A model generated the notes under the pieces. The model saw nothing but the letters and a program-made list of their open reading frames with translations. It was not told the DNA's origin and searched no databases. From Promethearchaeota archaeon (lineage in GTDB: Archaea > Asgardarchaeota > Lokiarchaeia > Sigyniarchaeales > SOKP01), in the NCBI GenBank assembly GCA_048939995.1, contig JBHLOY010000002.1:369402-433401 (forward strand): DNA of 64,000 nt, given 5' to 3'. Made by a program: the position numbers and the translations under genes. This document shows, in pieces, positions 28,020 through 53,861 of the stretch; the stretch's first letter is position 1; every line of letters starts with the position of its first letter.

Positions 28020-28209
28020 AATTAAAGGCAGTTGAATCTATTGAAATATAATTAAAATATAATTAATAAAAGTTATCAATATAATACCTATAGTTTGAAT
28101 CCTTAACTAAACTCCTAATCGTAATTCTTATATGAAAACGGCTTTTTTTATGAGATTGATTTAAAGAGCTAAGGTGAACAATCTTTCGATTTTTTGTTAT
28201 ATAAAGTAA

Positions 28210-28280
28210 GTTTAAAATTTCAACTAATTTCAGAAAATTGTTTAAAATTAAGATATTATGATATTGAGCAGTTTAAATTT
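28210..28280 (+). promoter_or_regulatory. Three GTTTAAA(A)TT boxes at 28210, 28240 and 28271 upstream of hdrC
   Basis: Spacing is 30 and 31 bp. Boxes 2 and 3 plus their flanks match 33280/33311 and 42208/42239. Confidence 0.45.
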
Positions 28281-28427
28281 CCCAATCCTATAATAACTAA
28301 AAGAAAAACTTAAATATAAGGAAAAGGTCTATTTTAGCAGACGTGAATAAAGTTAAGTCTATTCTATCTTTTCTAAATTGTTATCTTATCTAAAAAGTTT
28401 GTTAATCAGAAGGAGAATAAAAAATTA

Positions 28428-29024: not shown

Positions 29025-29038
29025 AAGGTCATATAAGG

Positions 29039-32389: not shown

Positions 32390-32425
32390 CTTTATAAAGA
32401 AATAATATGTTAGGTTGAGCGAAAA

Positions 32426-33100
32426 TTGTATCCAAGAGTTAAAGAAATTCAGACAAATAAATTCAATGAATCAATTTTAAATTTTTATACTGAAAATTAT
32501 ACGATTAAGATTGATAAGGAGAGATGCATTGGATGTGGAATTTGTATTAAAGTCTGTCCTAATAATGCTATTCCTGCTCAAGATCTAGAAGGAAAAGTAC
32601 GAATTAAGACTGAGAATCTTGTGCCAGGCACACCGAATGCGCTTAAATGTTCATATTGTGGGACTTGCATGTATATGTGTCCTTTAACAGCAATATCTTT
32701 AAAACATAATAGAAAATTGATAAATAAAGAAGATCTGGGGATCGTAAAAAATAAGGTGGTTCCAGAATTAGATTTTAAATCGATTAACTCTGATAAATTT
32801 CAGAAAGAGATTAAAGTATACTTTGATGGTAAAATATCTATTGATTGGGATAAATGCATTTCATGCATGTCATGTGTGGATGTCTGTCCAGTTGAAGCTT
32901 TTTTTAAATCTAACACTCAGGATGGCAAAGATGAAAAAAGAAAAAGAGTTTCATTTAATCAAGATGCATGCATAAATTGTGGTACCTGTGTTAGAGCTTG
33001 TTCAGTCAAAGCTATAAGTTTAAAAGATCGTGCATTAAACTTTTCTGGGGATTTTAAAAAGATATTTTGGGAAGCTTTATTAACACGTATCAAAACTTGA
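32426..33100 (+). CDS. Polyferredoxin with four 4Fe-4S motifs
   Basis: Motifs are CIGCGICIKVCP, CSYCGTCMYMCP, CISCMSCVDVCP and CINCGTCVRAC. Confidence 0.8.
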   Translation: MYPRVKEIQTNKFNESILNFYTENYTIKIDKERCIGCGICIKVCPNNAIPAQDLEGKVRIKTENLVPGTPNALKCSYCGTCMYMCPLTAISLKHNRKLINKEDLGIVKNKVVPELDFKSINSDKFQKEIKVYFDGKISIDWDKCISCMSCVDVCPVEAFFKSNTQDGKDEKRKRVSFNQDACINCGTCVRACSVKAISLKDRALNFSGDFKKIFWEALLTRIKT

Positions 33101-37888: not shown

Positions 37889-39388
37889 CTAAAAAATTCT
37901 ATATAAGAATTTAGCAGTATTAAATAATAATGATATTCTCCAGAATTTTAATCTAGTTTTAACTATCCGATATGAATTAAACAAATCTTTTGGATCTAAT
38001 AACTTTTTTAATATTTTACTCTTGGATACTAATTCAGGTCTATATTTAAACAAATAAAAAGTATTCACTATACCTATGGTATAAAGCCTATCCCCCTGAG
38101 TAAATGCTAGAACAGAAAGATCATGTAAGAATGCCTTTACTGTAAAGAATTCACTAGTTCTAGCAATATCAGATAAACCAAATACTTTTACTCTACTCCA
38201 ACCTAAAATTCCCGAAATTGTATATAAGGCAGTTGGAAATTTATATTTCTTACTTTTCTTTAAATATTTTTGAATAAAATCTTCTAATCTTTTGTCAGCA
38301 ATCCAATATTCTTGAAATATTAGATTTCTACTTGATCTTCCTATAGCCACTTCAGCATCACTAATATCACGCCACTTTTCCTTTAAATATAATTTATCTA
38401 CTGCTATTCCATTTAATTCTAAAGCATGTTTCTCAGAAAATGATACACTTTGTGATGTTACCTCAGGATCATCATAATAAACTGCCCAAACTAACCATTC
38501 TTGGTCAGGAAAATTGATATGGGAATAGGTTTCAAATTTGCGTTCTGAAATTGATATGAAAAATGGCTTATTAGTATTATTTTTGAGTTTTTGATAAAAT
38601 TCGATAGCTTCACGAATAGATTTAAAGCCATAACCAATTATTTCCAAGGAAGTTTTTAAGGTTGTAAGAGATAATTCAACCTCGGCTATAGCACCGTAGA
38701 TCCCATAAGTTCCACAAATATCATCGAGTGTTATTTGTCCTTTAGAATCCTTCGAAACAGTGATGATTTTTCCATCAGGTTGGACTAGTTTTAAATTAAG
38801 AATTGAATCTTTCATTGATCCGTATTTTAACACACCAATACCGGCAGTACCGGGGGTAGCTATAAACCCTCCAACACAAGATGTTTTAAAGCTTGTAGGA
38901 TAACATTTAGGTGCAAGACCGTAATCTGAAAGTTTTTCTATCAAATTTAACCAAGAGATACCAGCCCCTACTTTTACTGTCATATTTTCTCTATCTATAC
39001 TTTGGATCTGATTTAATCTCCTTGTGTCTATTATAACACCACCTTTCGAGGGAGTAGCTGAAGAAAAGCATGATGTCCCAGCCGCTCTTATTGTAACAGG
39101 AATTTTTCGCTCTCTACATTTCATTATTAGTTTAGAAAGATTATTAATATCAGCAGGACGGACAATTAGACTCGCAAGGTAATTCTTTTTGAATTTATAA
39201 TGGTATGATGGAAGTGAAGTAAGATCAGCAGATGCTGATTCGAGTTCATAAGGATTGGAACTAACATGATAAGACGATATAAAGTCTTTTACAACCTCTT
39301 CAAAATCACGTTTATCTTTTTCTCGTGAATCTATTATATTGGATTCATTATTCATTTCTTTAGTATTAGAATTCATTTTAAATATCAC
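37889..39388 (-). CDS. FAD-binding (PCMH/FAD_binding_4) oxidase, GlcD/D-lactate dehydrogenase-like
   Basis: FAD-binding segment IPVTIRAAGTS..GGVIIDTRRLN..VKVGAGISW. The start lies 9 nt after the stop of 39398..40264. Confidence 0.8.
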   Translation of the reverse strand: MIFKMNSNTKEMNNESNIIDSREKDKRDFEEVVKDFISSYHVSSNPYELESASADLTSLPSYHYKFKKNYLASLIVRPADINNLSKLIMKCRERKIPVTIRAAGTSCFSSATPSKGGVIIDTRRLNQIQSIDRENMTVKVGAGISWLNLIEKLSDYGLAPKCYPTSFKTSCVGGFIATPGTAGIGVLKYGSMKDSILNLKLVQPDGKIITVSKDSKGQITLDDICGTYGIYGAIAEVELSLTTLKTSLEIIGYGFKSIREAIEFYQKLKNNTNKPFFISISERKFETYSHINFPDQEWLVWAVYYDDPEVTSQSVSFSEKHALELNGIAVDKLYLKEKWRDISDAEVAIGRSSRNLIFQEYWIADKRLEDFIQKYLKKSKKYKFPTALYTISGILGWSRVKVFGLSDIARTSEFFTVKAFLHDLSVLAFTQGDRLYTIGIVNTFYLFKYRPELVSKSKILKKLLDPKDLFNSYRIVKTRLKFWRISLLFNTAKFLYRIF

Positions 39389-39397: not shown

Positions 39398-40264
39398 TTA
39401 AAATAATGGAACCATTAAAAAGCCTGAAAAGAAAGCAGCCCACCAGCAAATTAAAGTAATGTAACCAGTTAATTTAGCATACTTTCGCTCTGCTGCAATT
39501 CCAAAAAGCATACTGAAAAGTCCAGCAATTAATCCAACTCCCCCTAATATTATATGAGACCAATGGATTCCAAAGGAGAATGACGTCCAGATTGCAGGAT
39601 TAAAAATTACTAGGGAAATAACATTAATCAGGGTTAAAACCCATGAAGCACCGGCTAGAATACCGTGGATTTTCACAAATTTATTTTCATTTATCAGTAC
39701 CAGTACTGTTCCTAAAGATAATAATAATAAGGCTGATAATCCGATATACATTTCAAAATGATTAAATATTTCAATTGTCGGAGCTGGTGGGAGTATTCCA
39801 CCAATGCTAAAAGTGATCTCTATATAGTCGAAAGGAGGTGGGCTACCAGAAACTGAATTATCTCCAGCTAAGATAAGGATCACATAAGCTCCATCCTCTG
39901 AAGGAGCTGTAATATTGAAAGTGACTGTCATTGCATTTGGATTTGGATTTAAATCATCGCCAGAGTTATCTAATATTCTAGCGCTAGTAGGTGAGATAAT
40001 AAATTGATCATTCTGTTTTCCGTCTGAAGGTGCTTGAATAAACAAATCAGAACCAGTAGCAGTAATATTAAAAGAAATGTTATCTGAAGCGTTGATAGGA
40101 TTAAATGTGTTTATATTAGTTTCAATTGAATAACCTCCCGGTACTGTATGGCAATTTTCATGAGGTTGATCGATACTAGGGTAAGCATTTACATTAAGAA
40201 AAATTGAGATTAGGATAACACCAAAAAAGGCAGATATTATTACTATTGCTTTTTTATTCAACAT
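39398..40264 (-). CDS. Exported H-x-x-C-H motif protein fused to a C-terminal 4-TM His-bearing membrane domain
   Basis: Signal peptide, then AYPSIDQPHENCH, a beta-rich ~140-aa domain (FNITAPSEDGAYVL), and 4 TM helices with His at KIHG and GIHWSH. Confidence 0.7.
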   Translation of the reverse strand: MLNKKAIVIISAFFGVILISIFLNVNAYPSIDQPHENCHTVPGGYSIETNINTFNPINASDNISFNITATGSDLFIQAPSDGKQNDQFIISPTSARILDNSGDDLNPNPNAMTVTFNITAPSEDGAYVILILAGDNSVSGSPPPFDYIEITFSIGGILPPAPTIEIFNHFEMYIGLSALLLLSLGTVLVLINENKFVKIHGILAGASWVLTLINVISLVIFNPAIWTSFSFGIHWSHIILGGVGLIAGLFSMLFGIAAERKYAKLTGYITLICWWAAFFSGFLMVPLF

Positions 40265-40428: not shown

Positions 40429-42132
40429 ATGATATTTAATAAGAATTCCTTGAGAACTGTTATTATTTATGATTTTGTAATTATTTTAGCTGTTGTTGTC
40501 ATTATCCCAAATCTATTGAACTTTTTTGATCTAAATCTAAAAATTCAAGTACTATCTTACCTCGCCAACATTCTAATTTTATTAAATATTATCATAGTAG
40601 TTATAGATTTAATCTTCTTGATGTGGAAGAGAGAAAATTATTTGTATCTAACATCATTCAATATGACTCTATCAGTTTCAATTTTTTTGCTGTTAGAGTA
40701 CTGTTTTGTGAATGGTTATTACGATTTTTTTTATGTATGGAGTTATAGTGAATTGACTTTACCACTTGTTTATAAGATTGTTGCTATATGGGCAGGAGAG
40801 GCTGGTTCAATAATGACTTGGATGGTATTTAACTCAGTAATTATTTTTGCCTATAGAATTAAAAACCAAGATAAAGAGGATACAGTTTTTCTATTATCAT
40901 GTATAGTTTCCATGATAATTTCTATTTTGTTTTTAATAATTTTATTCTCACTTAACCCTTTTAAAGTAGAGCAGCCAGTTTTGTATCCCAATGGTTTTGG
41001 ACTCAGCCCTCAATTGATGTCCCCTTTTATGATTTGGCATCCTTTTTTTACATTTTTAGCATATGCCATCTTTCTAATTCCATTCACTATTAATATTATA
41101 AATCTTATAAAACCAAAATTGTCTTTAAGAAATCCTTATCAGCAAGCATTTTATAATTTTTCATTAAAATTTGGATGGTTAGTTATTACCCTAAGTATAG
41201 GTTTAGGAGCTTATTGGGCAAAAATTACTTCCGCTTGGGGCAGATATTGGGGCTGGGACCCAGTAGAGGTTGTATCTCTTATTCCCTGGTTTTTTTGTAC
41301 TGCTTTTTTTCATTCCAGTATATTTAAAGTGAAAAATCCTAGGATTATTAAAATAAATTCCATCTTAATCTTTTTTTCAATAATATTTGCCACCTTAATA
41401 ACTAGGGGAGGAGTATTGAGTTCGCTTCACGCATTTACAGGAGGAGGAGAATTGGTTATATGGGTTTTAATTATTGGTTTTATTTTATTAGCTTTTGCGA
41501 TATATGTAATTTACGAAATTTTAAATTACTTCTTGGAAGACTATCATAAAATTAAGAGCTTTTTTGATTATTTAAGCTATCTGATTTTATTTTGCTTATC
41601 TTTTGTTTGCATTTTTGGACTGATAATTCCTCCTCTAACTAATTTCATATCAAATTTTATCGCAATTGATTCAATAATCATTGGTCCAAACTTCTTTATG
41701 ATTAGCGCATTCATATTAGCTATAATATTGGCAATTTCGCTCATTTTTTGTTCCTTGTGGGATATCTATAACAAAAGGTGGATCATAATCACTTTATTCA
41801 TTGTATTTTTGATACAGTTGATTATTTCATTATTTTTATTTTTTCTATTTGATCTTTGGATAAATCCATTTATTGCCATCTTTTATTATGCTCTTTTTGC
41901 TTCAACCTTTCGATTAATAAAGAGAACGAATCTTCAAATGGGGTTCCAAAAGTTCTTTAGAACAAATTCAAAAACGATTATACATGGAGGAATATCACTT
42001 ATTTTGATAGGGACTTTAATTGATGCCAGTTACGAAGTAATTTTAGATATTTTTTACATTTCTGGATTTGGTTTTTTACTAATTGGGATAATACCCTCTA
42101 TTTTTATGGTTTTTTTTATTAAAGCACATTGA
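40429..42132 (+). CDS. ccmF: Cytochrome c-type biogenesis protein CcmF (haem lyase/haem-handling protein)
   Basis: W-rich motif WGRYWGWDPVEVVSLIPWF, flanking His residues (MIWHPF, AFFHSS) and RGGVLSSLHAF. Confidence 0.85.
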   Translation: MIFNKNSLRTVIIYDFVIILAVVVIIPNLLNFFDLNLKIQVLSYLANILILLNIIIVVIDLIFLMWKRENYLYLTSFNMTLSVSIFLLLEYCFVNGYYDFFYVWSYSELTLPLVYKIVAIWAGEAGSIMTWMVFNSVIIFAYRIKNQDKEDTVFLLSCIVSMIISILFLIILFSLNPFKVEQPVLYPNGFGLSPQLMSPFMIWHPFFTFLAYAIFLIPFTINIINLIKPKLSLRNPYQQAFYNFSLKFGWLVITLSIGLGAYWAKITSAWGRYWGWDPVEVVSLIPWFFCTAFFHSSIFKVKNPRIIKINSILIFFSIIFATLITRGGVLSSLHAFTGGGELVIWVLIIGFILLAFAIYVIYEILNYFLEDYHKIKSFFDYLSYLILFCLSFVCIFGLIIPPLTNFISNFIAIDSIIIGPNFFMISAFILAIILAISLIFCSLWDIYNKRWIIITLFIVFLIQLIISLFLFFLFDLWINPFIAIFYYALFASTFRLIKRTNLQMGFQKFFRTNSKTIIHGGISLILIGTLIDASYEVILDIFYISGFGFLLIGIIPSIFMVFFIKAH

Positions 42133-42371: not shown

Positions 42372-44768
42372 ATGAAAAACAAAAAACGCAAGCTATTATC
42401 CCTTATTATTGTTATCTGCTCTTTACTTCTATTTACTGGATTTACAATTGCTTATACAAGTTACTTTGATGATTTTAATGGAACATCTCACGGCACTTCT
42501 TGCCACTTTAGCTCTTCAACTCAAAGTAGTACGGGATATTTATCAATAGTATCAAGTTCAGGAAATACCGTAAATCCCGGTGAGAATTTTATACTATCTG
42601 TTCAAGTAAAAAGTTTCAGCGAAGCAGATGGAAAAGAACTTAAATTTGGTTTTCCTAGTGGCACTCCAGGCAGAGGAGATAATAAGCAATTTGGTTTTAA
42701 TACCACAATGGTCTCTGCAGATATAACTTCTGGAGATTCAGCGATATTTGATTTTCTAGTTAATGCACCTCTGACAGAGCAATCATATACTTTAACTGCT
42801 GATGCAATATACCGAAAGAGTGGTAGTGAGACTATATGGGCGTCTACTAATTATATAGTAACAGTCCAAACTTCCTCAGACATTTTACCCCCAGAGCTCA
42901 TCATTATCGATCCGAAAGATAATGAATACAAAAATGGCAATATATTGATTAATGCAAGTGTTATTGACAATGGAGGTTCAGGTCTTAATACAGTATGGGC
43001 AGAAATTACTAATAATAACTCTTTTAATCAAACTGTTTCAATGAATTTAAACACTGATCCATATTATAACGCTATTTGGGATTCAACTTCTGCGCTTGAT
43101 GGTCCTTATACTATAAATGTGAAAGCTAATGATGGAGCCTTTAATATTAATGATACAGAATCTGTAAATGTGATCATTGACAACACCGCGCCCTCAATTG
43201 TTTTAAATAGTGTGCTCCCAAATCCTTCAAATGGATTAACATCTATAAGAGCAATGAATTTTAGTTCAGATATCAATAATTATGGGATTAGGGCAACTAT
43301 AACAACTCCCACTGCTAACAAAATTTTCCTTGATCTAATATATCAAGGAGGAAATGAATGGAACAATACATTTACTATAACCCAAAATGGAATATATTCT
43401 GTTCAGATAAATGCAAGTGACTATTTAGGAAATATTAATATTTCATCCTCATTAAGCATTAATGGAGACATTTTAAATCCTTTTGTTGATATTACAAGTC
43501 CTGGAAATGATGGAGATACCATCGGGGGAGATACTATTATTATAAGCGGATGGGCATATGGTACAGGTACTAACATTGTAAGTTTATTTATAAACGATTC
43601 AAGATGGGGAATTACTCAGAATAAACCCCAGATTGACCCCAGCGGCACTTCTAGTGGACCATTCAGTTTTGAAAATAATAGTTATATATCTCCAGGATTT
43701 TATTGGGTTGAAGTTAACATTACAGACGCTGCTGGAAATATAAATATAAGTAAAAGATATTTCGAAGTCGTTTCGAACGATATTTTTCCACCTATCCTTG
43801 TTTTTAGCTTAATAAATCCAAATCCATCAAATGGTTTTACTAATATTACTGTTATATCAAATGAACCATTAATAGGAAATCCATTGTTAAGTATAACCAC
43901 TCCAAATAGTACTACTATTTATAGAACACTTTATCCTACGGGGGTTCCGAGAACATGGATAACCAATTATACAATTCATGAAACAGGAACTCACTTTATA
44001 CAAGTAAATGGAACAGATCTTCATTCAAATGTGGGTTTTAAAACGGATTCATTTTATGGAGATATTGATGCACCTTGGATTACCCTTGATAATGTTTATC
44101 CAAATCCATCCAATGGCTTAACGTTAATAACTGCTTTTAATGCAAGCTCGGATATTGATATAAATGGATTATGGGCCACAATAACAACACCTAGTAAATC
44201 AATTTCCATTCAACTTAATTATCAAGAGAACAGTAAGTGGAATGCAACCTTCATAGTAACTGAAGATGGAACTTATTCCATCCAAGTAAATGCGACTGAT
44301 TTTGCTGGAAACACAAACATTACAGACTTAATTTATATTACTGGTGATATTAGTACTCCAATTTTATCAATAATTTCACTTCCAATTGAGAGTGGGGTTA
44401 ATGCTCCAAACTTTTCTATCTCCATAACAGAGCCAAATTTAGATGGCATATGGTATTCACTATATAATGGCATTTACTGGTCTCAAAATATCACTATTAT
44501 TGGATTTAATGGGACTTTAGAGCAATCTTTATGGGATACCATGCCTACAGGGGATATCTTAATTAGGTTTTATGCAAATGATACGTTAGGACACATAGGA
44601 TATATAGATATTACTATTAGTAAAAATATACCCCAGACGAATATCAATCCTGGGGAAGGAACAGTATCAGGATTCGATTTAGGTATAATAATCGCAACGA
44701 CTTCAGCGATTCCACTTATATTTATAATTCTATGGCTAAAATCAAGGACAAAAAGATTTATTCGATAA
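42372..44768 (+). CDS. Large surface protein: signal peptide, H-x3-C-H motif domain, multiple Ig-like repeats, C-terminal TM anchor
   Basis: Starts AYTSYFDDFNGTSHGTSCH. The N-domain is homologous to 47724..48377 (RGDNxQFG, FDFL.NAP..Y.L). Three ~95-aa repeats contain PNPSNG(L/F)T. The anchor is SGFDLGIIIATTSAIPLIFIILWLKSRTKR. Confidence 0.8.
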   Translation: MKNKKRKLLSLIIVICSLLLFTGFTIAYTSYFDDFNGTSHGTSCHFSSSTQSSTGYLSIVSSSGNTVNPGENFILSVQVKSFSEADGKELKFGFPSGTPGRGDNKQFGFNTTMVSADITSGDSAIFDFLVNAPLTEQSYTLTADAIYRKSGSETIWASTNYIVTVQTSSDILPPELIIIDPKDNEYKNGNILINASVIDNGGSGLNTVWAEITNNNSFNQTVSMNLNTDPYYNAIWDSTSALDGPYTINVKANDGAFNINDTESVNVIIDNTAPSIVLNSVLPNPSNGLTSIRAMNFSSDINNYGIRATITTPTANKIFLDLIYQGGNEWNNTFTITQNGIYSVQINASDYLGNINISSSLSINGDILNPFVDITSPGNDGDTIGGDTIIISGWAYGTGTNIVSLFINDSRWGITQNKPQIDPSGTSSGPFSFENNSYISPGFYWVEVNITDAAGNINISKRYFEVVSNDIFPPILVFSLINPNPSNGFTNITVISNEPLIGNPLLSITTPNSTTIYRTLYPTGVPRTWITNYTIHETGTHFIQVNGTDLHSNVGFKTDSFYGDIDAPWITLDNVYPNPSNGLTLITAFNASSDIDINGLWATITTPSKSISIQLNYQENSKWNATFIVTEDGTYSIQVNATDFAGNTNITDLIYITGDISTPILSIISLPIESGVNAPNFSISITEPNLDGIWYSLYNGIYWSQNITIIGFNGTLEQSLWDTMPTGDILIRFYANDTLGHIGYIDITISKNIPQTNINPGEGTVSGFDLGIIIATTSAIPLIFIILWLKSRTKRFIR

Positions 44769-44857: not shown

Positions 44858-45580
44858 TTGAAGAATTTGGCTATTAAAAATAAAGAAATCATCAATTGTA
44901 AAAATGTTTCAAAGCAATTTGGATATTTCTTTGCATTAAAAGATATTTCATTCAAAGTAATAGCAAATACTATCTTTGGGATTGCAGGAGCAAATGGAGC
45001 AGGTAAAACAACACTGATTAAGATTTTATCTGGATTAATGAATCCTTCTTCTGGAAAAGTATACATTCAAGGTAATAATTATACTGAAAATCCGTTTTTG
45101 ATTAAGGAAATGATAGGAATTAATACTGAGGAATCTTTTCTTTATGAGGAGTTGACTATTAATGAAAATCTAGAGTTTTATGATAATCTTCATTACAACT
45201 TCAATAAAAGTCAGATAAGAAATAAAGTAGAAAACTATGCAGAATTATTTGAAATTCACGATTGGTTAGATGAACCCATTCGGAATTTATCTCATGGAAT
45301 GAAACAAAAAGTTGAAATAATTAGAGTTTTAATGCATGAGCCTTCAATATTGTTCTTAGATGAACCCTTTTCAGGTTTAGACTTTAAAGCAACTAAATTA
45401 TTAATAAATTTACTTCAGAATTTAAAAAAAGGAAAAAATGTAACAATAATACTAACTACTCATAAAATTGATGTATTATCAAAAATCTATGATGATTTAA
45501 TCATTTTAAAAAAGGGAAAAATCAACAAATTCATTACAAAAGAAACTTATGAAGAATTTGAAATAGAATCATATTTTTGA
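44858..45580 (+). CDS. ccmA: ABC transporter ATPase, CcmA-like by context
   Basis: Walker A GANGAGKTT, signature LSHGMKQK and Walker B ILFLDEP. TTG start. It is immediately followed by a CcmB-like gene. Confidence 0.75.
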   Translation: MKNLAIKNKEIINCKNVSKQFGYFFALKDISFKVIANTIFGIAGANGAGKTTLIKILSGLMNPSSGKVYIQGNNYTENPFLIKEMIGINTEESFLYEELTINENLEFYDNLHYNFNKSQIRNKVENYAELFEIHDWLDEPIRNLSHGMKQKVEIIRVLMHEPSILFLDEPFSGLDFKATKLLINLLQNLKKGKNVTIILTTHKIDVLSKIYDDLIILKKGKINKFITKETYEEFEIESYF

Positions 45581-45589: not shown

Positions 45590-46306
45590 ATGGAGATAAA
45601 ATTTAAAGATAGAATTAAGTTATTCTTTTCTATATTAAGAAAAGATTTAAAATCTGAAATCCGTCAAATAAACGATATATTTTCAATATTTCTTTTTGAT
45701 GTTATATCTATTTTTATATTTTCATCAGTATATAGCTTCAGTACACAATATCAACAGATCCCGCTTGAAATATTTATAATTGAGGTCTGGTTAATAATTT
45801 TTTTTACTCTTATTTTTATAATGGCTAAATTATTCATTAAAGAAAAAGAATCTGGAACCTTAGGAGGATTAATTTCTTCGCCAATTTCAGCCAACACAAT
45901 AATATTTAGTAAGGTAATTTTTTGTTTTATTCTATTGAGCTTTATCGAAATCATTCTTTTTCTCTTTAGTTTCTTTATTTCTAATCCTTTAATACCCAAT
46001 TTACAATTTAATAATGTGATAAATTATATACTCTTAGGGATTATTTTACCAACATTAGATTTATCAATCTGTGGGACAATAGTATCAGCAATTTCTATGT
46101 ATGCTAAGAAAAAATCTTTTATTATACCACTTATCCTATTTCCGATAATATTGCCAATAACAATCCCAATAATATCGATTAATATTAAATTGTTAGAATT
46201 AGCTGCGTTTCTTGAATTAACTTATGAAATTTTATTTTTAGTTTCACATATTATTCTTATGACTTCAATATTAGCTTTAGTTTCTCAAAATCTTCTTTTT
46301 GATTGA
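45590..46306 (+). CDS. ccmB: Haem exporter membrane protein CcmB-like
   Basis: 6-TM protein with KEKESGTLGGLISSPIS, matching the CcmB E-x-x-GTLE-x-L-x-x-SP segment. Start is 10 nt after ccmA. Confidence 0.65.
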   Translation: MEIKFKDRIKLFFSILRKDLKSEIRQINDIFSIFLFDVISIFIFSSVYSFSTQYQQIPLEIFIIEVWLIIFFTLIFIMAKLFIKEKESGTLGGLISSPISANTIIFSKVIFCFILLSFIEIILFLFSFFISNPLIPNLQFNNVINYILLGIILPTLDLSICGTIVSAISMYAKKKSFIIPLILFPIILPITIPIISINIKLLELAAFLELTYEILFLVSHIILMTSILALVSQNLLFD

Positions 46307-46309: not shown

Positions 46310-46648
46310 TTAGCTACACTGAATGAGAATTTGGCTTGCTTTTAAAATCAACGTAATGTTGAATTGACCTGCAACCACTATTTCAATTCCATTTTTTAGT
46401 TCGCTTGGTACAGTAATTTGAGAAACATCGATTAAAATTGTATCATCATTCTCTGTCAAATTAAAGTTGCCCCCTGAAAAGCCTTCTACAATCCCAATTA
46501 CTTGAATTTCAAGATTATCATATTCTGTAGGATTGGAAACAACCTGAGAAACCCTAAGATATGGTCGTATATTAATAACTACTAATATAATAATAAGAAC
46601 TAATGAAAAAATAATTGCTATTATTGCTATAATCTTCGCTTTTTTCAA
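46310..46648 (-). CDS. ccmE: CcmE-like haem chaperone, Cys variant with truncated C-terminus
   Basis: An N-terminal TM anchor plus an OB-fold-like pattern (YLRVSQVV, IQVIGIV, FNLTEND, IEIVVAGQF). The C-terminus ..LKASQILIQCS aligns with ..EVLAKHDExY. Confidence 0.65.
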   Translation of the reverse strand: MKKAKIIAIIAIIFSLVLIIILVVINIRPYLRVSQVVSNPTEYDNLEIQVIGIVEGFSGGNFNLTENDDTILIDVSQITVPSELKNGIEIVVAGQFNITLILKASQILIQCS

Positions 46649-46667: not shown

Positions 46668-46805
46668 TTATTTTTCTAATTTATTAATTCTTTTTTTTAT
46701 TTTTCTTATACGTAATTTTGGATATAAGATTAAAATAACAATAATAGTCCAAAACAAGGCATAACTGATAGCCATTGTAATAGAATCTAAAACAACCTCG
46801 GACAT
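46668..46805 (-). CDS. CcmD-like small membrane protein (45 aa, absent from the ORF track)
   Basis: Own translation: MSEVVLDSITMAISYALFWTIIVILILYPKLRIRKIKKRINKLEK. It has one TM helix and a basic tail. The ATG lies 5 nt after the ccmC stop, and the ORF ends 19 nt before the ccmE start. Confidence 0.45.
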   Translation of the reverse strand: MSEVVLDSITMAISYALFWTIIVILILYPKLRIRKIKKRINKLEK

Positions 46806-46810: not shown

Positions 46811-47611
46811 TTAATCATCTCGTAACTTATTTTGAATAATTTCATTTAATTTTTGTTTATTTTTATCTAGTTCAACTAAATTTCTTACCACATAAACGAA
46901 AAAGAGAGTCATCGCTATCAAGTTAAGAAATAATATAAGAAGTTTCATAAAATCCCAATAAATATAACCTGATTCACTTGGATTTGGAGTTATTAATGGA
47001 TGTAAACTTGTAAAAATGATTGCAGAAAGATAACTTAAAGGCACTGTTGGAAAAAAAATAATTCCTAAAATTGAAGTTAATTTAGCTCTCCTTTCTCTAT
47101 CTTCAATCATAGTCCCAAAAATTAAATAAGATAAATATGAGAGAAACAAGACTAAAGTCATAGTTTGTCGCGGGTCACTCCACTGCCAATAAACATTATT
47201 ATAAAGTCCCGAAGTAGCATTATACCAGAGTGATCCTGTGATAAGTGTTACTGCACAAAAAAATACACCTACGACAATACTATTCTTTCCTATACTATTC
47301 CAGAATAGTTTTCTTTGTATGAGGTATAATATATGACAAATAAGACTTACTCCAAATGAAAAGTAGGAAAGCCAAGCTGATGAAACATGATAAAAAAAAA
47401 TCATATACACAATGCGGCTAAAATTTGTCAATAAAAAAATCAAAAATAAGTTAATGATGAGGAATGAAATTGAAATGATAAGTAAATAATCTTTTTTTAC
47501 CCAACTTCTGATGTCTTTCATCTTAATTCTCAAATAAATATAAAATTTTGTATTGAGTGAGTTATAATTAATATTATTGCTGTTAATACTTTCAATATTA
47601 AAAAAGATCAA
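46811..47611 (-). CDS. ccmC: Cytochrome c biogenesis haem-handling protein CcmC
   Basis: W-rich motif NVYWQWSDPRQT and conserved His residues (FFYHVSSAW, SLHPL). The true start is probably Met31 (ATG at 47521..47519). Confidence 0.8.
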   Translation of the reverse strand: MIFFNIESINSNNINYNSLNTKFYIYLRIKMKDIRSWVKKDYLLIISISFLIINLFLIFLLTNFSRIVYMIFFYHVSSAWLSYFSFGVSLICHILYLIQRKLFWNSIGKNSIVVGVFFCAVTLITGSLWYNATSGLYNNVYWQWSDPRQTMTLVLFLSYLSYLIFGTMIEDRERRAKLTSILGIIFFPTVPLSYLSAIIFTSLHPLITPNPSESGYIYWDFMKLLILFLNLIAMTLFFVYVVRNLVELDKNKQKLNEIIQNKLRDD

Positions 47612-47690
47612 AAAAGTCTTTTAATCCTTATAATTGGAAGTTATTTTAATTCATTTTTAAAATTTGTTCTTATGGAATAATGGTTATTTC

Positions 47691-47705
47691 AAAAAAAAAA
47701 AAAAA
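47691..47705 (-). terminator. T15 run (A15 on the + strand) immediately downstream of 47724..48377
   Basis: Uninterrupted 15-nt homopolymer between the stop of the HAGCH protein gene and ccmC. Confidence 0.45.
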
Positions 47706-47723: not shown

Positions 47724-48377
47724 CTATTTAGAAGCTTTACGTTTCTTTCGATATACTAATACGACTATAAGTGAGGCAGTTGTAATGGCAAGTACTCCAA
47801 CCAAAGTATAAATTTCAAATCCAGGAATAGCTCCACCGCTAACAGTCAAAACTACATTGCCTGAAGCATAAATAATACTCAGAGCAGAGCCATCAGTGTG
47901 ATTTGCGGCAGTTAAAACGTCAACAACTAGGTTATAAGTACCATCTGTAGATGGAGCTAGTAAATCAAAAGAAACTGAAACATTAGCATCTCCATTAACA
48001 TCTAAAGTAATTCCTCCTAATCTTATTGGTTCACTTAATTTTTTGCCAAATTGAGCATTATCACCACGAGTAGAAGCGACTGCCACACTCACTTGACTAT
48101 CTCTATCTATAGTTAATGCTTCAGTAAAATTTGTAATTACTACATTTACAGTAAACTCTTGGCCTGCTGTTAGTGATGTACCCTGAATGGAGACAACGGT
48201 TACTGCAGCGCCAGCGCTTTCTGTAGTAGGACCATCCCCAACATGACATCCAGCATGTGAACCACCAAGAAAGCTTTCAATGGAAGATGGGTAGGCAACC
48301 GCACCACCAACTAAAACTAGAAGAAAAGCAAATACGGCAATAAGAGGGATTATTTTTCTTTTCATTTGATTAGCCAC
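47724..48377 (-). CDS. Surface-anchored H-x-x-C-H motif protein with PGF-CTERM-like anchor
   Basis: Signal peptide, then AYPSSIESFLGGSHAGCH, a ~150-aa beta-rich domain (RGDNAQFG, FDLLAPSTDGTYNL), and the C-terminus IPGFEIYTLVGVLAITTASLIVVLVYRKKRK. Confidence 0.75.
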   Translation of the reverse strand: MANQMKRKIIPLIAVFAFLLVLVGGAVAYPSSIESFLGGSHAGCHVGDGPTTESAGAAVTVVSIQGTSLTAGQEFTVNVVITNFTEALTIDRDSQVSVAVASTRGDNAQFGKKLSEPIRLGGITLDVNGDANVSVSFDLLAPSTDGTYNLVVDVLTAANHTDGSALSIIYASGNVVLTVSGGAIPGFEIYTLVGVLAITTASLIVVLVYRKKRKASK

Positions 48378-48804: not shown

Positions 48805-49368
48805 ATGCAATTAGATAATATTGATAAACAAATACTAAACGCCTTATTCAAAAATGGACGAGAAAGCTTAACTAGTTTAGAGAAAATAATAATTAAATCT
48901 GATACAGAAACTATGAGTCATACTGGTATTGCTAAAAGGATAACAAAATTAGAAGATAATGATCTTATTAAAGTTCAAGCTAATACTAATTTAAATAAAC
49001 TCCAATATAAAGGCCTATTTTTGTTAATGGAAATGGTTAATTTTGAGGAAGTTCAAAATATTATTAAAGCATACAGCGATTGCCCTAGAGTATTTTTAAT
49101 GGCGCCTGTAACTGGACAATACAATTTAATTTTAGGTGTCGTAGGGCAAAATCTTGATATTTTACACCGATATTTAAATTATTGTGGTCCCACGAATAAA
49201 AAAGGGATTTTGCATTCTGCTGTGATGTTTACTACAGATCTTATTAAACCAAAATATGTTCCCATTGACTTATTCAGCCAAGAAAGCCATGAGATTGATT
49301 GTGGGAATGTGTGTAAAAATTGTGCTGCTTATCTTGATGGAAAATGTAATGGTTGCGGAAATTTTTAA
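48805..49368 (+). CDS. Lrp/AsnC-like transcriptional regulator with C-terminal Cys-rich tail
   Basis: N-terminal LDNIDKQILNALFKNGRESLTSL HTH pattern, a RAM-like middle region, and the tail CGNVCKNCAAYLDGKCNGCGNF. Confidence 0.6.
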   Translation: MQLDNIDKQILNALFKNGRESLTSLEKIIIKSDTETMSHTGIAKRITKLEDNDLIKVQANTNLNKLQYKGLFLLMEMVNFEEVQNIIKAYSDCPRVFLMAPVTGQYNLILGVVGQNLDILHRYLNYCGPTNKKGILHSAVMFTTDLIKPKYVPIDLFSQESHEIDCGNVCKNCAAYLDGKCNGCGNF

Positions 49369-49574: not shown

Positions 49575-50888
49575 ATGGCAGTAAAAGTCGCATTTTACCA
49601 ATGTTCAGATTGCTGGGGCTGTCATCAATCCTTAATAAACGCTCATCTAGGGTTGTTGCCAGTATTACCAGCACTAGATATTGTGTACTGGCCGGCAGTG
49701 ATTGATATGAAATATGATTCTTTAAAATCTAGACCAGACGGAGATATCTTAGTAGGTTTCATTGAAGGAAGTCTTAGAACAAATGATGACGTAGAAAGTG
49801 CTAAATTAATGAGGGCTAAATGCAAACTTATCATATCATTTGGTTCTTGTGCATGTTATGGTAATGTACATGGATTAGCAAATCAATGGGATATCCAAGA
49901 GTTAATTAATCGGAAATTTGGTGAAGTGGAAAGCATTACTAATGAATCACCACATGAACCAAAAGAACATGTCCCTGGGTTCGCCGCTAAAATTGTACCG
50001 TTAGATGAAATTATTCAGGTTGATGCGTATATTTCAGGATGCCCACCTAAACCAGAAGCTATTATTAGTGCAGTACAGTTCCTACTTGGTCAAAAGCCAT
50101 TCCCTTCCAATGAAATACCATTCTGTAATGATTGTGCTATAAAAAATGAATGTCTATTAGATTCAGGAACGCTATGTTTTGGACCAATTACTAGTACCGG
50201 ATGTAATTTAAAGTGTACTAGTGACAGAAACCCATGTGTAGGTTGTTATGGACCATCTAAAACGATAGATATGAGAGCAGAAAAATTAAATACAATGACA
50301 AAAAGTCTATATACACCCAATACAGGAGATAAAAAAAGTTTTCATGAATTTTTAACGCTATTTCTAAATATCCCATTAATGGCAGGTTTTGATCTTTCTG
50401 GAGATCTTTTAAAGCAGATCAAGAAACGAGGATTTGTTCAATCCCCATTAGCAAATTTACCTTCAACTACGGAAGAAATTGCATCTAATTTAATGAAATA
50501 TATGGCTAATAATCCAGATTTTCACGAGATCTCGAATGTGTGTGATACATGTCCTAGAATTATTGGTAGTAAATCAACAATGACAAAAGTAAAAAGAGAT
50601 TATGAAGGACTCCCTAATATGGAAGATTGCTTCATTGAACAAGGATACATTTGTATGGGACCTGTGACTAAAGCTGGTTGCGGTGGTTTATGCATAAAGG
50701 TTAACGCACCTTGTACTGGTTGCTTTGGGCAGACCAAATGGGGTGTTAATCAAGCAGAGAGATTTGCTGATACTGTAATTAAGGGTTTCAATGTGAGTTT
50801 ATCTAAAGAAGAGCTACTTGCTCAGGTAAAAGATCATATTGGTACTTTTGAAAAATTTACATTTGCATCAAGAAAAGGAGGTATATAA
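49575..50888 (+). CDS. Group 3 [NiFe]-hydrogenase small subunit (MvhG/VhuG-like), extended form
   Basis: Carries CWGC, GSCACYG and SGCPP proximal-cluster ligands plus two further Cys-rich modules. It lies directly upstream of the large subunit. Confidence 0.85.
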   Translation: MAVKVAFYQCSDCWGCHQSLINAHLGLLPVLPALDIVYWPAVIDMKYDSLKSRPDGDILVGFIEGSLRTNDDVESAKLMRAKCKLIISFGSCACYGNVHGLANQWDIQELINRKFGEVESITNESPHEPKEHVPGFAAKIVPLDEIIQVDAYISGCPPKPEAIISAVQFLLGQKPFPSNEIPFCNDCAIKNECLLDSGTLCFGPITSTGCNLKCTSDRNPCVGCYGPSKTIDMRAEKLNTMTKSLYTPNTGDKKSFHEFLTLFLNIPLMAGFDLSGDLLKQIKKRGFVQSPLANLPSTTEEIASNLMKYMANNPDFHEISNVCDTCPRIIGSKSTMTKVKRDYEGLPNMEDCFIEQGYICMGPVTKAGCGGLCIKVNAPCTGCFGQTKWGVNQAERFADTVIKGFNVSLSKEELLAQVKDHIGTFEKFTFASRKGGI

Positions 50889-50891
50889 AAT

Positions 50892-52196
50892 ATGACAAAA
50901 GAAATAGATGTAGAGCCTGTAACTCGATTAGAAGGGCATGGAGGGTTGCGATTGGTTTTAGGAGATGATGGAACAGTACAAGATGTGCAATTTAACATCA
51001 CATCGACAAGATTTTTTGAGAAATTTTTAGAAGGTCGTTACTGCGAGCATATAAACCGGATTACGCCTCGGATTTGTGGAATTTGTCCCATTCCTCATCA
51101 TTTATCACCAACGAAAGCTGTAGAAGATGCTTGGGGTGTTGAAATTCCCACACCAGCCTTAAAATTACGAAAGTTGCTCATTAATGCAAAGCAATACTCC
51201 TCTCATGCTTTACATTTCTATGCATTGGCAGCACCAGATTTCTTATTAGGACCTATGGCAGATCCTGCATTAAGAAATGTGGTTCATGTAATCAATAAAA
51301 TGCCAGATGTTGGAGCTATGGCTCTAAAAATGATGGATTTTGGTCAAAAATTATGCGCGGCTATTGGGGGTAAGTCTGTGCATCCTATTTCAGCTATTGT
51401 TGGTGGGATGAAAAAAGCAATGGATGAAGATGCTCGAGATTTATTCTTAAAGCAAATTGGAGATCAAGTTGAATGGACGAAAAAGACAGTAGATATCGGA
51501 TTGAAAGTTGTCGAGGATTACTGGGATGTTGTTGCAAACGTAGGAGTTGTACCTACATACTATGCTGGGATGACTAAAAATGGAGTTCATGATATTTATG
51601 AAGGAGATCTTAGGATTGTATCTCCTGATGGACAGAAATTTGATTATCCGCCTCAAAAATATTTAGAGGTATTAGGTGAATATATTCCTGAACATTCATA
51701 TGCTACCCATATGTATTACAAGCCTGCTGGATACCCTGAAGGGATTTATCGGGCGAATACATTGGCTATGATTAATGCCGCTGATAGAATGGCAACTCCT
51801 TTAGCTGATGAAGCATTAAGGGCAATGAGAGATAAGGTTGGTGCTATTTCGCATCACACATTTGCTTATCATTGGGCAAGATTAATTGAATTAGTAGAAT
51901 CTATTGAGATGATTGCTACATTACTTCAAGATCCAGATATACTCAATCCAGATTGTAAAACATTAGATGTACAACCTAGAGAGGCTGACGGAGTCGGTTT
52001 AGTAGAAGCACCTCGTGGTCTATTACTATATCATATTTGGTCAGATGCTGATGGTCTATGTAAAAAGGCTAACCTTTTAGTAGCTACCAATCATAATATT
52101 GCAGGAATTGAAAAAACTTTAAAATTCGTAGCGAAGCAAGTATTTGAACAAAACGCTTTGGCCGGATTAAAATTACCAGACCCTTGGATAAAATAA
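50892..52196 (+). CDS. vhuA: [NiFe(Se)]-hydrogenase large subunit lacking the C-terminal Ni-ligand motif (VhuA-like)
   Basis: N-terminal RLEGHG and RICGICPIPHH motifs. The ORF ends ..LKLPDPWIK without any DPCxxCxxH motif. Confidence 0.9.
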   Translation: MTKEIDVEPVTRLEGHGGLRLVLGDDGTVQDVQFNITSTRFFEKFLEGRYCEHINRITPRICGICPIPHHLSPTKAVEDAWGVEIPTPALKLRKLLINAKQYSSHALHFYALAAPDFLLGPMADPALRNVVHVINKMPDVGAMALKMMDFGQKLCAAIGGKSVHPISAIVGGMKKAMDEDARDLFLKQIGDQVEWTKKTVDIGLKVVEDYWDVVANVGVVPTYYAGMTKNGVHDIYEGDLRIVSPDGQKFDYPPQKYLEVLGEYIPEHSYATHMYYKPAGYPEGIYRANTLAMINAADRMATPLADEALRAMRDKVGAISHHTFAYHWARLIELVESIEMIATLLQDPDILNPDCKTLDVQPREADGVGLVEAPRGLLLYHIWSDADGLCKKANLLVATNHNIAGIEKTLKFVAKQVFEQNALAGLKLPDPWIK

Positions 52197-52228
52197 AATT
52201 AAAAAGATATAAAGGCGATATAAAAGAA

Positions 52229-52381
52229 ATGAGTGAAGAAATACCAGAAGGAGTAGTAAATCTTTTAGAAATGGTAGTTCGCTGTTTTGATTGCTGACTA
52301 TCGTGTGCCGCACACATCACCGTTGTTGATGAAAAAGGCTCTGAGATTTACTCTCGCGAGTTAAATGTTGGCTTAGGATGA
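52229..52381 (+). CDS. vhuU: VhuU-like selenopeptide: separately encoded C-terminal Ni-ligand segment of the large subunit, Sec codon TGA at 52295..52297
   Basis: Own translation: MSEEIPEGVVNLLEMVVRCFDC-U-LSCAAHITVVDEKGSEIYSRELNVGLG. It aligns with the E-M-V-I-R-x-Y-D-P-C-L-S-C-A-T-H large-subunit C-terminus, and the TGA falls at the first Cys position. Confidence 0.8.
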
Positions 52382-52438
52382 ATATCCAATATAAACAATA
52401 GATTGGATACAACTGCCCATGCACGGGTTAAAGCCAAC
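52367..52438 (+). ncRNA. Candidate SECIS-like stem-loop overlapping the vhuU stop codon and 3' UTR
   Basis: Outer stem GTTGGCTT (52367..52374) pairs with AAGCCAAC (52431..52438). Inner stem TATCCAAT (52383..52390) pairs with ATTGGATA (52402..52409), enclosing an 11-nt loop. A GAA lies 5' of the inner stem. This is the only GC-enriched patch in the spacer. Confidence 0.3.
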
Positions 52439-52475
52439 CAAAATATAAAATAAAAAAGAAAGAAGAAACGGAATA

Positions 52476-53003
52476 GTGAAAAAAATGACTATAAATTTTG
52501 AATTTAGAAAGCAAGTTATGGATTACCATATAGGGTCTGATTTAATAAAATATTGTTACCAATGTAGCAGATGTGCTGATAACTGTCCAGTCACCAAAGT
52601 GACAACAGATTTCTATTCGACAACGGGGTATAATCCACGTAGTAATATCCTAAATGCTCTATTGGGGTATAAGGATGTTATATTTTCAGCTGATCCCTTA
52701 ACTATTTGGGGATGTACTGTATGTGACACTTGTGACGAAGTTTGTCCTCAGAAAATTGAGCTTACTGAAATCTTTACATTCTTAAAAAATGAATCGGTAG
52801 AGCAAGGTAAAGCTCCTGAACATATATATGCTCAAGCACAAACAATCTTTGAAAATGCTAAAGCAATTCCACCACAACCTGCAATTGAGAGAAGAAGAGA
52901 ACAATTAGGATTACCTACAATAATAACACCAGACATAAATGAGCTCCAAACATTATTAAGAAATATAGGAGCAGATAAAAAACTTACTAAGAGGGAGGAT
53001 TAA
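52476..53003 (+). CDS. hdrC: Heterodisulfide reductase subunit C (second copy)
   Basis: Contains CYQCSRCADNCP and CTVCDTCDEVCP. The ATG at 52485 is a possible start. Confidence 0.85.
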   Translation: MKKMTINFEFRKQVMDYHIGSDLIKYCYQCSRCADNCPVTKVTTDFYSTTGYNPRSNILNALLGYKDVIFSADPLTIWGCTVCDTCDEVCPQKIELTEIFTFLKNESVEQGKAPEHIYAQAQTIFENAKAIPPQPAIERRREQLGLPTIITPDINELQTLLRNIGADKKLTKRED

Positions 53004-53861
53004 ATGACAGAATATAAGATGTTTGAAGGTTGTACTATAGGGAATCGTATTCCCTTTATAGAAGCTGCTTCGAGAAAAGTGTTTCAAAAAGTAGGAATTG
53101 AAACTTCTGAGGCGCCATTTAGTTGCTGTCCAGATCCCACAGGGATGAAAAGTTTTGATAATGATTCATGGTTAGTTATTGGAGCTCGAAACCTTAGTCT
53201 TGCTGAAGCTGAAGGTAAGAATATTATATCTTTATGTAATGGATGCGCGAATACTCTCAGAGGAGTACAACATCAATTGAAACATGATTCCTTAAAACGA
53301 CAAAAAGTTAATAAACAGTTAGCTAAAATTGGTAAAAGTTATCATGGTAACATAGATATAAAGCATTTTGTTGATGTATTAAAAGATAATCTTGATAAAG
53401 TTAGAGAATCAATTACAAAACCATTAAGCGGGTTAAAAGTAGCTGTTCATCCTGGTTGTCATTACATGAGACCAGCAGAGTGGATGGAGAATGATGATCC
53501 AATGCATCCGCAAAACCTAAAGAAAGTAGTTGCTGCTACTGGTGCAACTGTTGTAGATTATGAAGAGTTAGCTTTATGCTGTGGTTCAGCTGTTACTAAT
53601 GCTTACGAAGAGCATGGTTTAGCAAATCTAAAAATTAAAATGGATAGTATTAAAAAAGCTGGAGCAGATGTAATTTGTGTTAATTGTCCTTCGTGTTTTC
53701 AGCAATTTGATACCCGTCAAAGAGATTTAGGTAAAAAATATGAATCTGAGTACGATATACCAGTGTTATATATAACTGAATTGTTAGCTTTAGCAATGGG
53801 AATCACTCCTGAAGAAATAGGGCTTAAGTTTCATAGAACTCGAATGAAGACCCAAATATAG
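53004..53861 (+). CDS. hdrB: Heterodisulfide reductase subunit B (second copy)
   Basis: CCG-domain motifs FSCCPDP, LCCGSA and CPSCFQQ. Colinear with 29039..29995. Confidence 0.9.
   Translation: MTEYKMFEGCTIGNRIPFIEAASRKVFQKVGIETSEAPFSCCPDPTGMKSFDNDSWLVIGARNLSLAEAEGKNIISLCNGCANTLRGVQHQLKHDSLKRQKVNKQLAKIGKSYHGNIDIKHFVDVLKDNLDKVRESITKPLSGLKVAVHPGCHYMRPAEWMENDDPMHPQNLKKVVAATGATVVDYEELALCCGSAVTNAYEEHGLANLKIKMDSIKKAGADVICVNCPSCFQQFDTRQRDLGKKYESEYDIPVLYITELLALAMGITPEEIGLKFHRTRMKTQI

Follow-up and report, generated by a model that had tools for sequence, protein, structure and literature searches.

A candidate single-cysteine c-type cytochrome family linked to a variant Ccm gene cluster in Asgard archaea

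The stretch of DNA analysed here (the window) comprises 64,000 nucleotides of contig JBHLOY010000002.1 from a Promethearchaeota archaeon (assembly GCA_048939995.1), with a G+C content of 31%. On its reverse strand, at 47724..48365, lies a small gene, hereafter the target, whose product is probably a surface c-type cytochrome carrying a single haem held by one thioether bond. This protein would be matured by a variant of the Ccm system (System I) encoded beside it, anchored by a tail resembling the Loki-CTERM and Heimdall-CTERM signals, and employed as part of a conduit that passes electrons outward. Several features support this reading: a cysteine–histidine pair is the sole invariant pair in the protein family, and some relatives carry a canonical CxxCH at the same site; loci recovered by their CcmE all hold family members, with no exported CxxCH alternative nearby; the Ccm machinery looks functional, the domain is fused elsewhere to HdrD-like modules, and three distant loci (L005, L024 and L007) repeat the ccm linkage; and a gene resembling a thiol reductase adjoins members with two cysteines. 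The initial annotation of the gene had hinted at a haem protein, and both the conservation of the Cys-His pair and the linkage to ccm lend that hint strong contextual support.

The open reading frame (ORF) first listed for the gene, 47724..48377 (− strand), encodes 217 amino acids (aa) from a GTG at 48377. An ATG four codons later, at 48365, is the start in an identical database protein and in all close homologues, these proteins beginning MKRKII or MKKRII; the 213-aa gene at 47724..48365, the smallest family member in the window, is therefore the likelier one. Residue numbers used here for H41, C44 and H45 refer to the 217-aa ORF. The protein opens with a Sec-type signal peptide, read by eye (MKRKIIPLIAVFAFLLVLVGGAVA, 48294..48365, −), with predicted cleavage between AVA and YPSS. 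The same n-h-c layout is present across all family members, while the N-terminal residue of the mature protein varies among them; to judge from this layout, the target is probably exported by Sec across the membrane to its outer side. The signal peptide is followed by a domain of about 155 aa (aa 29-182; 47832..48293, −), in which an N-terminal motif loop precedes an eight-strand immunoglobulin (Ig)-like beta-sandwich. The loop contains H41-A-G-C44-H45 (48243..48257, −), in which C44 and H45 are invariant and where haem c is proposed to be attached through a single cysteine. The target's only cysteine sits near the N-terminus. Three further blocks on the same strand mark the domain: NFTEA (48117..48131), RGDNAQFG (48045..48068) and FDLLAP..Y.L (47928..47969). 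It had been proposed from a by-eye comparison that these blocks are shared with the N-terminus of the protein encoded at 42372..44768, and all of them are indeed present in the alignment: AY(P/T)S, F-x-G-x-SH-x(2,3)-CH, NFTEA/SFSEA, RGDN(A/K)QFG and FD(L/F)L..AP..Y.L (BLASTP E 2e-17, 31% identity across 186 aa). A third paralogue of 288 aa (39398..40264), which lay outside that comparison, matches the target at E 1e-5.

The breadth of the family becomes apparent only with a profile. Word-indexed homologue searches recovered few relatives (5, 16 and 2 matches), whereas a family profile of 157 positions, searched against 1.84 billion representative proteins at E<=1e-3, matched 184 proteins. About 90 of these hold the whole domain at the N-terminus; most of them are about 200 aa long and run from a signal peptide to an anchor at the C-terminus, and some reach 400-1700 aa. 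The remaining matches cover the beta-sandwich core only, as generic repeat domains. All family proteins with a named source come from Asgard metagenome-assembled genomes (MAGs) labelled Promethearchaeota, Hodarchaeota, Thorarchaeota or Hermodarchaeota. In two alignments, of 38 and 60 diverse members, the cysteine and the histidine that follows it form the only invariant columns, and CH stands in register in 86 of 90 representatives, the other four having no CH found in register. The residue upstream of the pair is usually a histidine, separated from the cysteine by two residues in 39 representatives (x2), by three in 19, by four in nine and by five in one. Elsewhere it is a cysteine, at x1 in six representatives, x2 in three and x4 in two. 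Seven representatives have neither cysteine nor histidine within the six residues upstream, two of them (P0021 and P0034) with a histidine at x6. Some relatives thus have a canonical CxxCH at this site (CNNCH, CDTCH, CNSCH and, in locus L005, CLSCH), and others have C-x4-CH or CxCH. Within the window, the target reads HAGCH, the 798-aa paralogue SHGTSCH and the 288-aa paralogue PHENCH. Together with the gene neighbourhood described below, this pattern suggests that the target binds haem. As a separate observation, some family members have the domain fused to an alpha-toroid resembling LanC or a glycoside hydrolase, and one further member has a free-standing LanC-like gene in its vicinity (P0064, P0089 and P0050; L005 10001..12199; L008 16417..18084).

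The target adjoins a complete System I set made up of ccmA, ccmB, ccmC, a ccmD-like ORF, ccmE and ccmF. The order of genes in the window is Fer4/CCG, FAD_binding_4, 288-aa paralogue, ccmF, 798-aa paralogue, ccmA, ccmB, ccmE, a 45-aa ORF, ccmC, target, an AsnC-like regulator and Mvh-type hydrogenase subunits. Two conserved cytoplasmic partners lie at one end of the cluster: an HdrD-like protein with Fer4 and two CCG domains (36389..37753, −) and a dehydrogenase of the FAD_binding_4 family (37889..39388, −). In the 288-aa paralogue (−), the domain is fused to a helical domain of four transmembrane segments with conserved histidines at both membrane faces. A known cytochrome b fold was considered for this membrane domain and set aside: Foldseek on its model (predicted local distance difference test, pLDDT, of 80) returned Ig-domain matches only, and Pfam and NCBIfam returned nothing. 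The 798-aa paralogue (+) carries the domain at its N-terminus, followed by Ig-like repeats, a transmembrane helix and a tail ending ..KRFIR. Between and beyond these genes are the haem lyase gene ccmF (40429..42132, +), the haem-release ATP-binding cassette (ABC) module ccmA (44858..45580, +) and ccmB (45590..46306, +), a variant ccmE (46310..46648, −) and ccmC (46811..47611, −). The AsnC/helix-turn-helix-like regulator (48805..49368, +) is divergent from the target and holds the same position in nearly all related loci. No exported CxxCH protein is encoded in the window; its only exported proteins with x-x-CH are the three paralogues, all of which flank the ccm genes.

The Ccm machinery looks intact and functional, as far as sequence can indicate. 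CcmF has the WWD motif (WGxxWxWDPVE) and four histidines, all invariant across 16 homologues, and CcmC keeps the WWD tryptophans and both conserved histidines, in the window and across homologues. CcmE is more unusual. In the window it ends ...QILIQCS-COOH, with a cysteine at the haem-binding position and without the xxxY of a CXXXY motif; in the window and 15 related genomes (14 MAGs and L024) the ending is ...QIL(T/I/V)QCS(T)-COOH. The haem-binding cysteine is second-to-last, or third-to-last in L022 (..QCST), and the tyrosine is absent because the protein stops right after ..QCS(T). Only the distant locus L005 has the CXXXY form (CPSKY), along with a C-terminal transmembrane helix. A strict co-variation, in which truncated CcmE would accompany His-type members and CXXXY CcmE would accompany Cys-type members, was considered and rejected, as L024 pairs a CcmE ending ..TQCS with a CGCH member. 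Between ccmC and ccmE, every locus examined (the window, L001, L002, L004, L005, L009-L022 and L024) contains an ORF of 45-59 aa with a single transmembrane segment (..SY-LFW-IIIILILYPKLRLRK..); the window copy, of 45 aa, is unannotated (46668..46805, −). For all three of these ORFs that were run against Pfam (window, L004 and L002), the top match is CcmD (PF04995), at E 3.4e-4 to 8.5e-4 and 20-21 bits (cut-off 25.6).

These features both recall and depart from what has been described for Archaea. Archaeal System I consists of CcmABCEF, without CcmD, CcmH or CcmI, and works with CcmABCEF alone, as in Methanosarcina acetivorans, where MmcA is the substrate; archaeal CcmE is said there to be 'universally' of the CXXXY type (PMC9084895). 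The window shares the streamlined set of ccmA, B, C, E and F without ccmH or ccmI, the use of a cysteine rather than a histidine in CcmE, and putative substrates that are predicted to be exported and membrane- or surface-associated. It differs in having a CcmE without the tyrosine (..QCS), a CcmD-like ORF, and putative substrates that present H-x(2-4)-CH, rather than CxxCH, on an Ig-like fold.

Linkage between the family and ccm was also approached from the machinery, independently of the domain family, by a scan seeded with a CcmE protein alignment over one genome per GTDB species. This yielded 14 loci in species-level MAGs, with CcmE 54-77% identical. In all 14, one or two small family members lie directly upstream of ccmC. 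A membrane-anchored member of about 295 aa follows ccmF in all 13 loci that extend far enough, and is itself followed by FAD_binding_4 and, except in the two loci that stop short, by Fer4/CCG genes. A member of 900-1500 aa lies next to ccmF in seven of the 14, between ccmA and ccmF in six and just beyond ccmF in L020. Across these loci, the 40 family ORFs all carry H-x(2-4)-CH and none carries CxxCH. Nor do the 14 loci contain any exported CxxCH ORF; where CxxCH occurs in an ORF of meaningful size, the product is either a small subunit of a cytoplasmic hydrogenase or, in one case, a CCG protein. Family members are thus embedded in the ccm cluster in 15 of 15 Loki-type loci (the window and these 14), as well as in three more distant loci, and what is conserved is the entire cluster centred on ccm rather than a single gene.

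The three distant loci repeat the linkage with cysteine-bearing motifs. In L005, a CGCH member has ccmF-C-E-A-B on one side and, on the other, a multihaem cytochrome of 483 aa in which CxxCH occurs nine times; in L024, another CGCH member is directly upstream of ccmC-ccmE; and in L007 the neighbours of a CNSCH member are ccmF and ccmAB, and upstream are hemA, hemC, a fused TP_methylase/HEM4 gene and a NirD/L-like gene. A 201-aa ORF within the L007 ccm cluster was considered as an extra family member and rejected: this ORF (7443..8048), between ccmA and ccmF, resembles by eye a signal peptidase I (..SDSMEPNLYQGD..). Elsewhere, two family members occur away from ccm genes and in company with other redox genes: split Fer4 and CCG proteins in L006, and cytochrome b, DOMON, Fer4_11 with NrfD and an EB_dh-like protein in L008. 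Two proteins labelled in GenBank only as '(Fe-S)-binding protein', from Promethearchaeota and Hodarchaeota MAGs, combine a signal peptide, the domain, in some cases an Ig repeat, one transmembrane helix and a cytoplasmic HdrD-like part with Fer4_8 (2x[4Fe-4S]) and two CCG domains (P0037, 815 aa; P0011, 436 aa, partial). Such fusions to HdrD-like modules tie the domain to electron-transfer proteins. The two-cysteine members P0168 and P0112 (C-x-CH and C-x4-CH), in two loci only, adjoin a membrane-anchored thioredoxin-like protein with WCxxC; such a neighbour is to be expected if a disulfide has to be reduced before haem can be attached. No gene of this sort was seen in clusters with the His variant, although the screen there used only queries derived from the window plus the family profile and did not look for thioredoxins. 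The two-cysteine variants are also flanked by a conserved polytopic membrane protein of 215-229 aa starting ..LH(S/A)PSLHFH.GAWAV; the WCxxC and polytopic neighbours lie at 8787..9329 and 11295..11984 in L008 and at 7454..8035 and 9972..10619 in L025.

The fold of the domain is less distinctive than its motif. An AlphaFold2 model built from a seven-sequence alignment (pLDDT 70, predicted template-modelling score 0.68) is an eight-strand beta-sandwich. Its closest Foldseek matches in the PDB are macroglobulin domains of complement C3 and CVF, the CARDB domain of PF1109 (3idu) and NBR1-type domains, at E 3.5e-5 to 1e-3 and query-normalised TM-scores of 0.43-0.50. The domain is therefore predicted to be an ordinary Ig-like, CARDB or macroglobulin sandwich, with likeness at the level of fold only; CARDB, macroglobulin and NBR1-FW domains share the predicted eight strands but lack the N-terminal Cys-His loop. 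The search was also the occasion to ask after a known cytochrome or cupredoxin fold, as had been suggested, and the top 50 matches contain neither; a cytochrome f-like fold is absent from them, as is a cupredoxin, and the protein has no C-terminal Cys..His..Met copper loop. Pfam, CARDB included, gives no match for the domain, and a profile search against PDB sequences gave weak Ig-like noise only, such as the Caf1 capsule antigen, with no chain matched at E<=1. In NCBIfam, the target scores 21.4 bits (cut-off 42) against choice_anch_V (NF041895), an uncharacterised choice-of-anchor V domain. Twenty-four of 60 family members match this model along almost its entire length, motif region included, and every match scored individually falls below the 42-bit cut-off; members with canonical CxxCH score highest, at 39.6 bits (P0028, CNNCH) and 26.7 bits. 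The claim of a new exported domain of about 150 aa therefore needs some revision: the domain is genuine, recurrent, about 155 aa long and without a Pfam match, but these sub-threshold matches mean that it is not wholly unknown to databases, though without an assigned function.

The C-terminus of the target has the layout of a sorting signal (47727..47828, −), as had been noted: IPGF (47817..47828; aa 184-187), a hydrophobic helix of 22 aa (47751..47816) and the basic residues RKKRKASK (47727..47750). The more specific proposal, of a PGF-CTERM-like anchor, holds for this tripartite layout and not for the model itself: the PGF-CTERM model gave no match (NCBIfam, E<=10), and the nearest models are the Asgard-specific Heimdall-CTERM (NF045529; 22.2 bits, cut-off 24) and Loki-CTERM (NF033507; 17.4 bits, cut-off 19.9), both aligned to the last ~32 residues and both below cut-off. 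With the substrates of archaeosortase A (PGF-CTERM) and with the Loki-CTERM and Heimdall-CTERM proteins, the target shares a Pro-Gly-aromatic motif, a transmembrane helix and a basic cluster. Among 90 distant relatives, [IL]PG[FYN] before a transmembrane helix and basic residues recurs in 28, although their domains are only ~30% identical, which argues for a conserved signal rather than the generic transmembrane anchor that had been considered possible. Other relatives have alternative anchors, namely a plain transmembrane helix with a basic tail, a ..K(P)KRFF ending, or the four-helix membrane domain. A second recurrent ending, a transmembrane helix with K-x-K-R-F-[FI], appears in several members, including the 798-aa paralogue (..SRTKRFIR), and may act as a separate signal, for sorting or for retention. 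No archaeosortase gene was found among the multi-transmembrane ORFs scanned in the 64-kb window, which encode an Rce1-like CPBP protease, a NosD-like protein, a major facilitator superfamily transporter and an ABC permease, with one small transmembrane ORF remaining without a match. The ORF at 164..964 (+) was considered as an archaeosortase and rejected; it is the Rce1-like CPBP intramembrane protease (PF02517, E 1.6e-16).

A run of 15 thymines on the coding strand (47691..47705, −; A15 on the + strand), the longest homopolymer in the window, lies 18 nt past the target's stop codon. In 14 of 14 related loci, a run of T9-T17 occurs 4-43 nt beyond the corresponding gene's stop codon. Further downstream in the spacer after T15 lies a TATA-like AAATTTTAAAA box for ccmC, and a conserved AAATTTTAAA(A) box downstream of the T-run and before ccmC is found in the window spacer (47612..47690) and in the spacers of L009-L022. 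Together with additional conserved sequence between it and ccmC, this box resembles an archaeal TATA/BRE (TFB recognition element) promoter. Oligo-T runs act as termination signals in Archaea, and T15 is by its sequence a conserved terminator-like element. The suggestion that T15 sets the target apart from ccmC as its own transcription unit is thus well accommodated by the T-runs and TATA-like box of all 14 loci: both elements are conserved, and oligo-T is a known archaeal terminator.

If the target is a cytochrome, its working can be outlined as follows. The neighbouring Ccm system would attach haem covalently through a single thioether from C44, and H45 would serve as the proximal iron ligand. 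H41, in place of the first cysteine of CxxCH, may provide a distal ligand, a contact with the haem edge or a covalent link. The haem loop would pack onto the Ig-like beta-sandwich, and the protein would be held or processed at the membrane via its Loki/Heimdall-CTERM-like tail. Cytoplasmic flavin adenine dinucleotide (FAD) and iron–sulfur (HdrD-like) oxidoreductases would hand electrons to the four-helix membrane domain of the 288-aa paralogue, with its conserved histidines, and from there electrons may pass to the small surface cytochrome (the target) and to the 798-aa paralogue, whose Ig repeats form a stalk.

Elements of this scheme have counterparts in known systems. Natural single-thioether haems occur in the mitochondrial cytochromes c and c1 of Euglenozoa, with (A/F)XXCH, and in haem ci of cytochrome b6f. 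The Euglenozoan cytochromes have the same arrangement of one cysteine followed by a histidine, and haem ci is bound by one cysteine alone. Both, however, are matured by systems other than Ccm and reside in all-alpha folds or in cytochrome b6, whereas in the family described here a conserved histidine usually replaces the first cysteine of CxxCH and Ccm is adjacent. Cytochrome f offers a parallel in layout, having a signal peptide, a mature N-terminus that starts with Tyr-Pro and is followed within ~25 residues by the haem motif, a beta-sandwich body, a single C-terminal transmembrane helix and a short basic tail. Its motif is CxxCH, however, no PDB sequence matched the domain at E<=1, and cytochrome f is absent from the top 50 fold matches; the likeness is one of analogy, not of membership. 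In HdrDE and DsrMK, an HdrD-like CCG/iron–sulfur protein is paired with a membrane cytochrome, and in anaerobic methanotrophic (ANME) archaea multihaem cytochromes span the S-layer. Here, a Fer4 and CCG protein stands next to, or is fused with, a membrane-anchored putative cytochrome, and the large repeat-stalk paralogue could span the envelope. Unlike HdrDE and DsrMK, the membrane partner is a four-helix domain without a detectable homologue, and in place of multihaem bundles of the ANME kind there would be Ig-like domains outside the cell, each with a single haem.

Several considerations weigh against a cytochrome. To our knowledge, CxCH is not a haem motif, and the target itself lacks CxxCH, the canonical form occurring at this site only in some relatives. 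The case for haem binding is drawn from one dipeptide and its gene context, the spacing of the upstream histidine varies from x2 to x6, and no invariant distal (sixth) ligand is evident in the 38- and 60-sequence alignments. The motif-bearing residues 11-30 are modelled poorly (pLDDT <50), and the top 50 Foldseek matches hold generic Ig-like folds only and no cytochrome. Part of the synteny reflects shared ancestry, because the 14 syntenic loci belong to related lineages, and canonical cytochromes may be encoded elsewhere in these genomes, beyond the window and the loci. The Ccm system of E. coli, moreover, is reported to act very poorly, or not detectably, on single-cysteine cytochromes (PMC3268396, with references 23 and 24 therein).

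A non-haem metal site is also plausible for H..CH, and the protein could accordingly be a metal-binding or redox domain at the surface (a metallochaperone, metal reductase or sensor) in which H41, C44 and H45 bind copper, iron, zinc or nickel on the Ig-like scaffold, the ccm genes serving other substrates whose genes lie outside this region of the genome. Histidine and cysteine are classic ligands of metals, the variable position of the upstream histidine resembles a metal loop more than the helix turn of CxxCH, the CARDB structure 3idu, among the best fold matches, was crystallised with a di-metal site, and the weakness of E. coli Ccm on single-cysteine motifs (PMC3268396) points the same way. 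We nevertheless regard this as unlikely: the site turns into a canonical CxxCH in several members, members sit inside the ccm cluster in all Loki-type loci and three more distant ones, no other exported CxxCH candidate is found nearby in the window or the related loci, and neither a cupredoxin-like fold match nor a C-terminal Cys..His..Met loop was recovered. It is also conceivable, if quite unlikely, that the family has no cofactor at all and consists of surface, adhesin or envelope proteins with alternative anchors, co-inherited with ccm in one clade and functionally unlinked to it. The generic sandwich fold, the Big, PKD and Ig repeats of large members, which are typical of surface proteins, a nearest NCBIfam model that is itself a 'choice-of-anchor' surface-protein domain, and the relatedness of the syntenic lineages would all fit. 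Such a family would leave unexplained why Cys-His is the only invariant pair, why the domain is fused to cytoplasmic Fer4/CCG modules, and why its neighbours include a multihaem cytochrome (L005), cytochrome b, NrfD and DOMON genes (L008) and thioredoxin-like genes.

We give very little weight to the idea that the small member is an accessory of the Ccm machinery, an apocytochrome or haem chaperone that stands in for the missing CcmH, CcmI or CcmG. Its position directly upstream of ccmC in every locus and a CH-bearing loop that could ligate haem transiently would suit this role, as would the precedent of Archaea without CcmH and CcmI (PMC9084895). But each cluster holds one to four paralogues, including surface proteins of 900-1500 aa, a fusion to a membrane domain and several alternative anchors, and such diversity of number, size and anchor is the pattern of substrates rather than of a machine part; moreover, a terminator-like T-run of its own separates the target from ccmC, and the system would be left without a visible substrate in these loci. 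Returning to the cytochrome, a bolder version is highly speculative and in our view improbable: the upstream histidine of H-x(2-4)-C-H would form a bond to a haem vinyl group, so that the haem is held by one thioether and one histidine link installed by a System I whose CcmE lacks the tyrosine, a way of attaching haem not recognised before, and these Ig-fold cytochromes would form a surface conduit for direct extracellular or interspecies electron transfer in Asgard archaea, the archaea most closely related to eukaryotes. His-vinyl bonds have precedents in bacterial CcmE (His130) and cyanobacterial GlbN (His117).

The remainder of the window may be described briefly. The ccm cluster lies in a neighbourhood of redox genes (20053..33100 and 49575..53861), which includes two homologues of the small subunit of Mvh-type [NiFe]-hydrogenases, each with a cytoplasmic CWGCH, and, as recognised by eye or by analogy with other loci, HypF/D/E-like maturation genes and HdrABC/MvhD-like genes. 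A 730-aa protein (3500..5692, −) has NosD/beta-helix repeats and about 11 predicted transmembrane segments, and a 690-aa leucine-rich-repeat protein (33706..35778, +) has a weak, sub-threshold match to HEAT repeats.

The searched literature contains no description of an HxxCH haem motif, of these proteins or of Asgard Ccm substrates; one survey notes putative haem exporters in Loki genomes, though not their substrates. If haem is bound as proposed, what is new is an unusual c-type cytochrome and a variant of System I, within the known c-type/System I kind. The substrate range of System I would be extended to natural single-cysteine motifs, and the machinery would take a new form, with a CcmE ending in Cys-Ser without xxxY and a CcmD-like subunit, that departs from the archaeal Ccm described so far. 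Such a finding would be of interest to the fields of both cytochrome biogenesis and Asgard physiology. The usual picture of Lokiarchaeia-type archaea is one of syntrophs exchanging H2 or formate. The cluster described here would, if the proposed reading is true, represent a conserved, genetically linked route from cytoplasmic FAD/iron–sulfur dehydrogenases to the Asgard cell surface; direct electron transfer to partners or minerals would then become a testable part of that syntrophy, with a bearing on models of eukaryogenesis.

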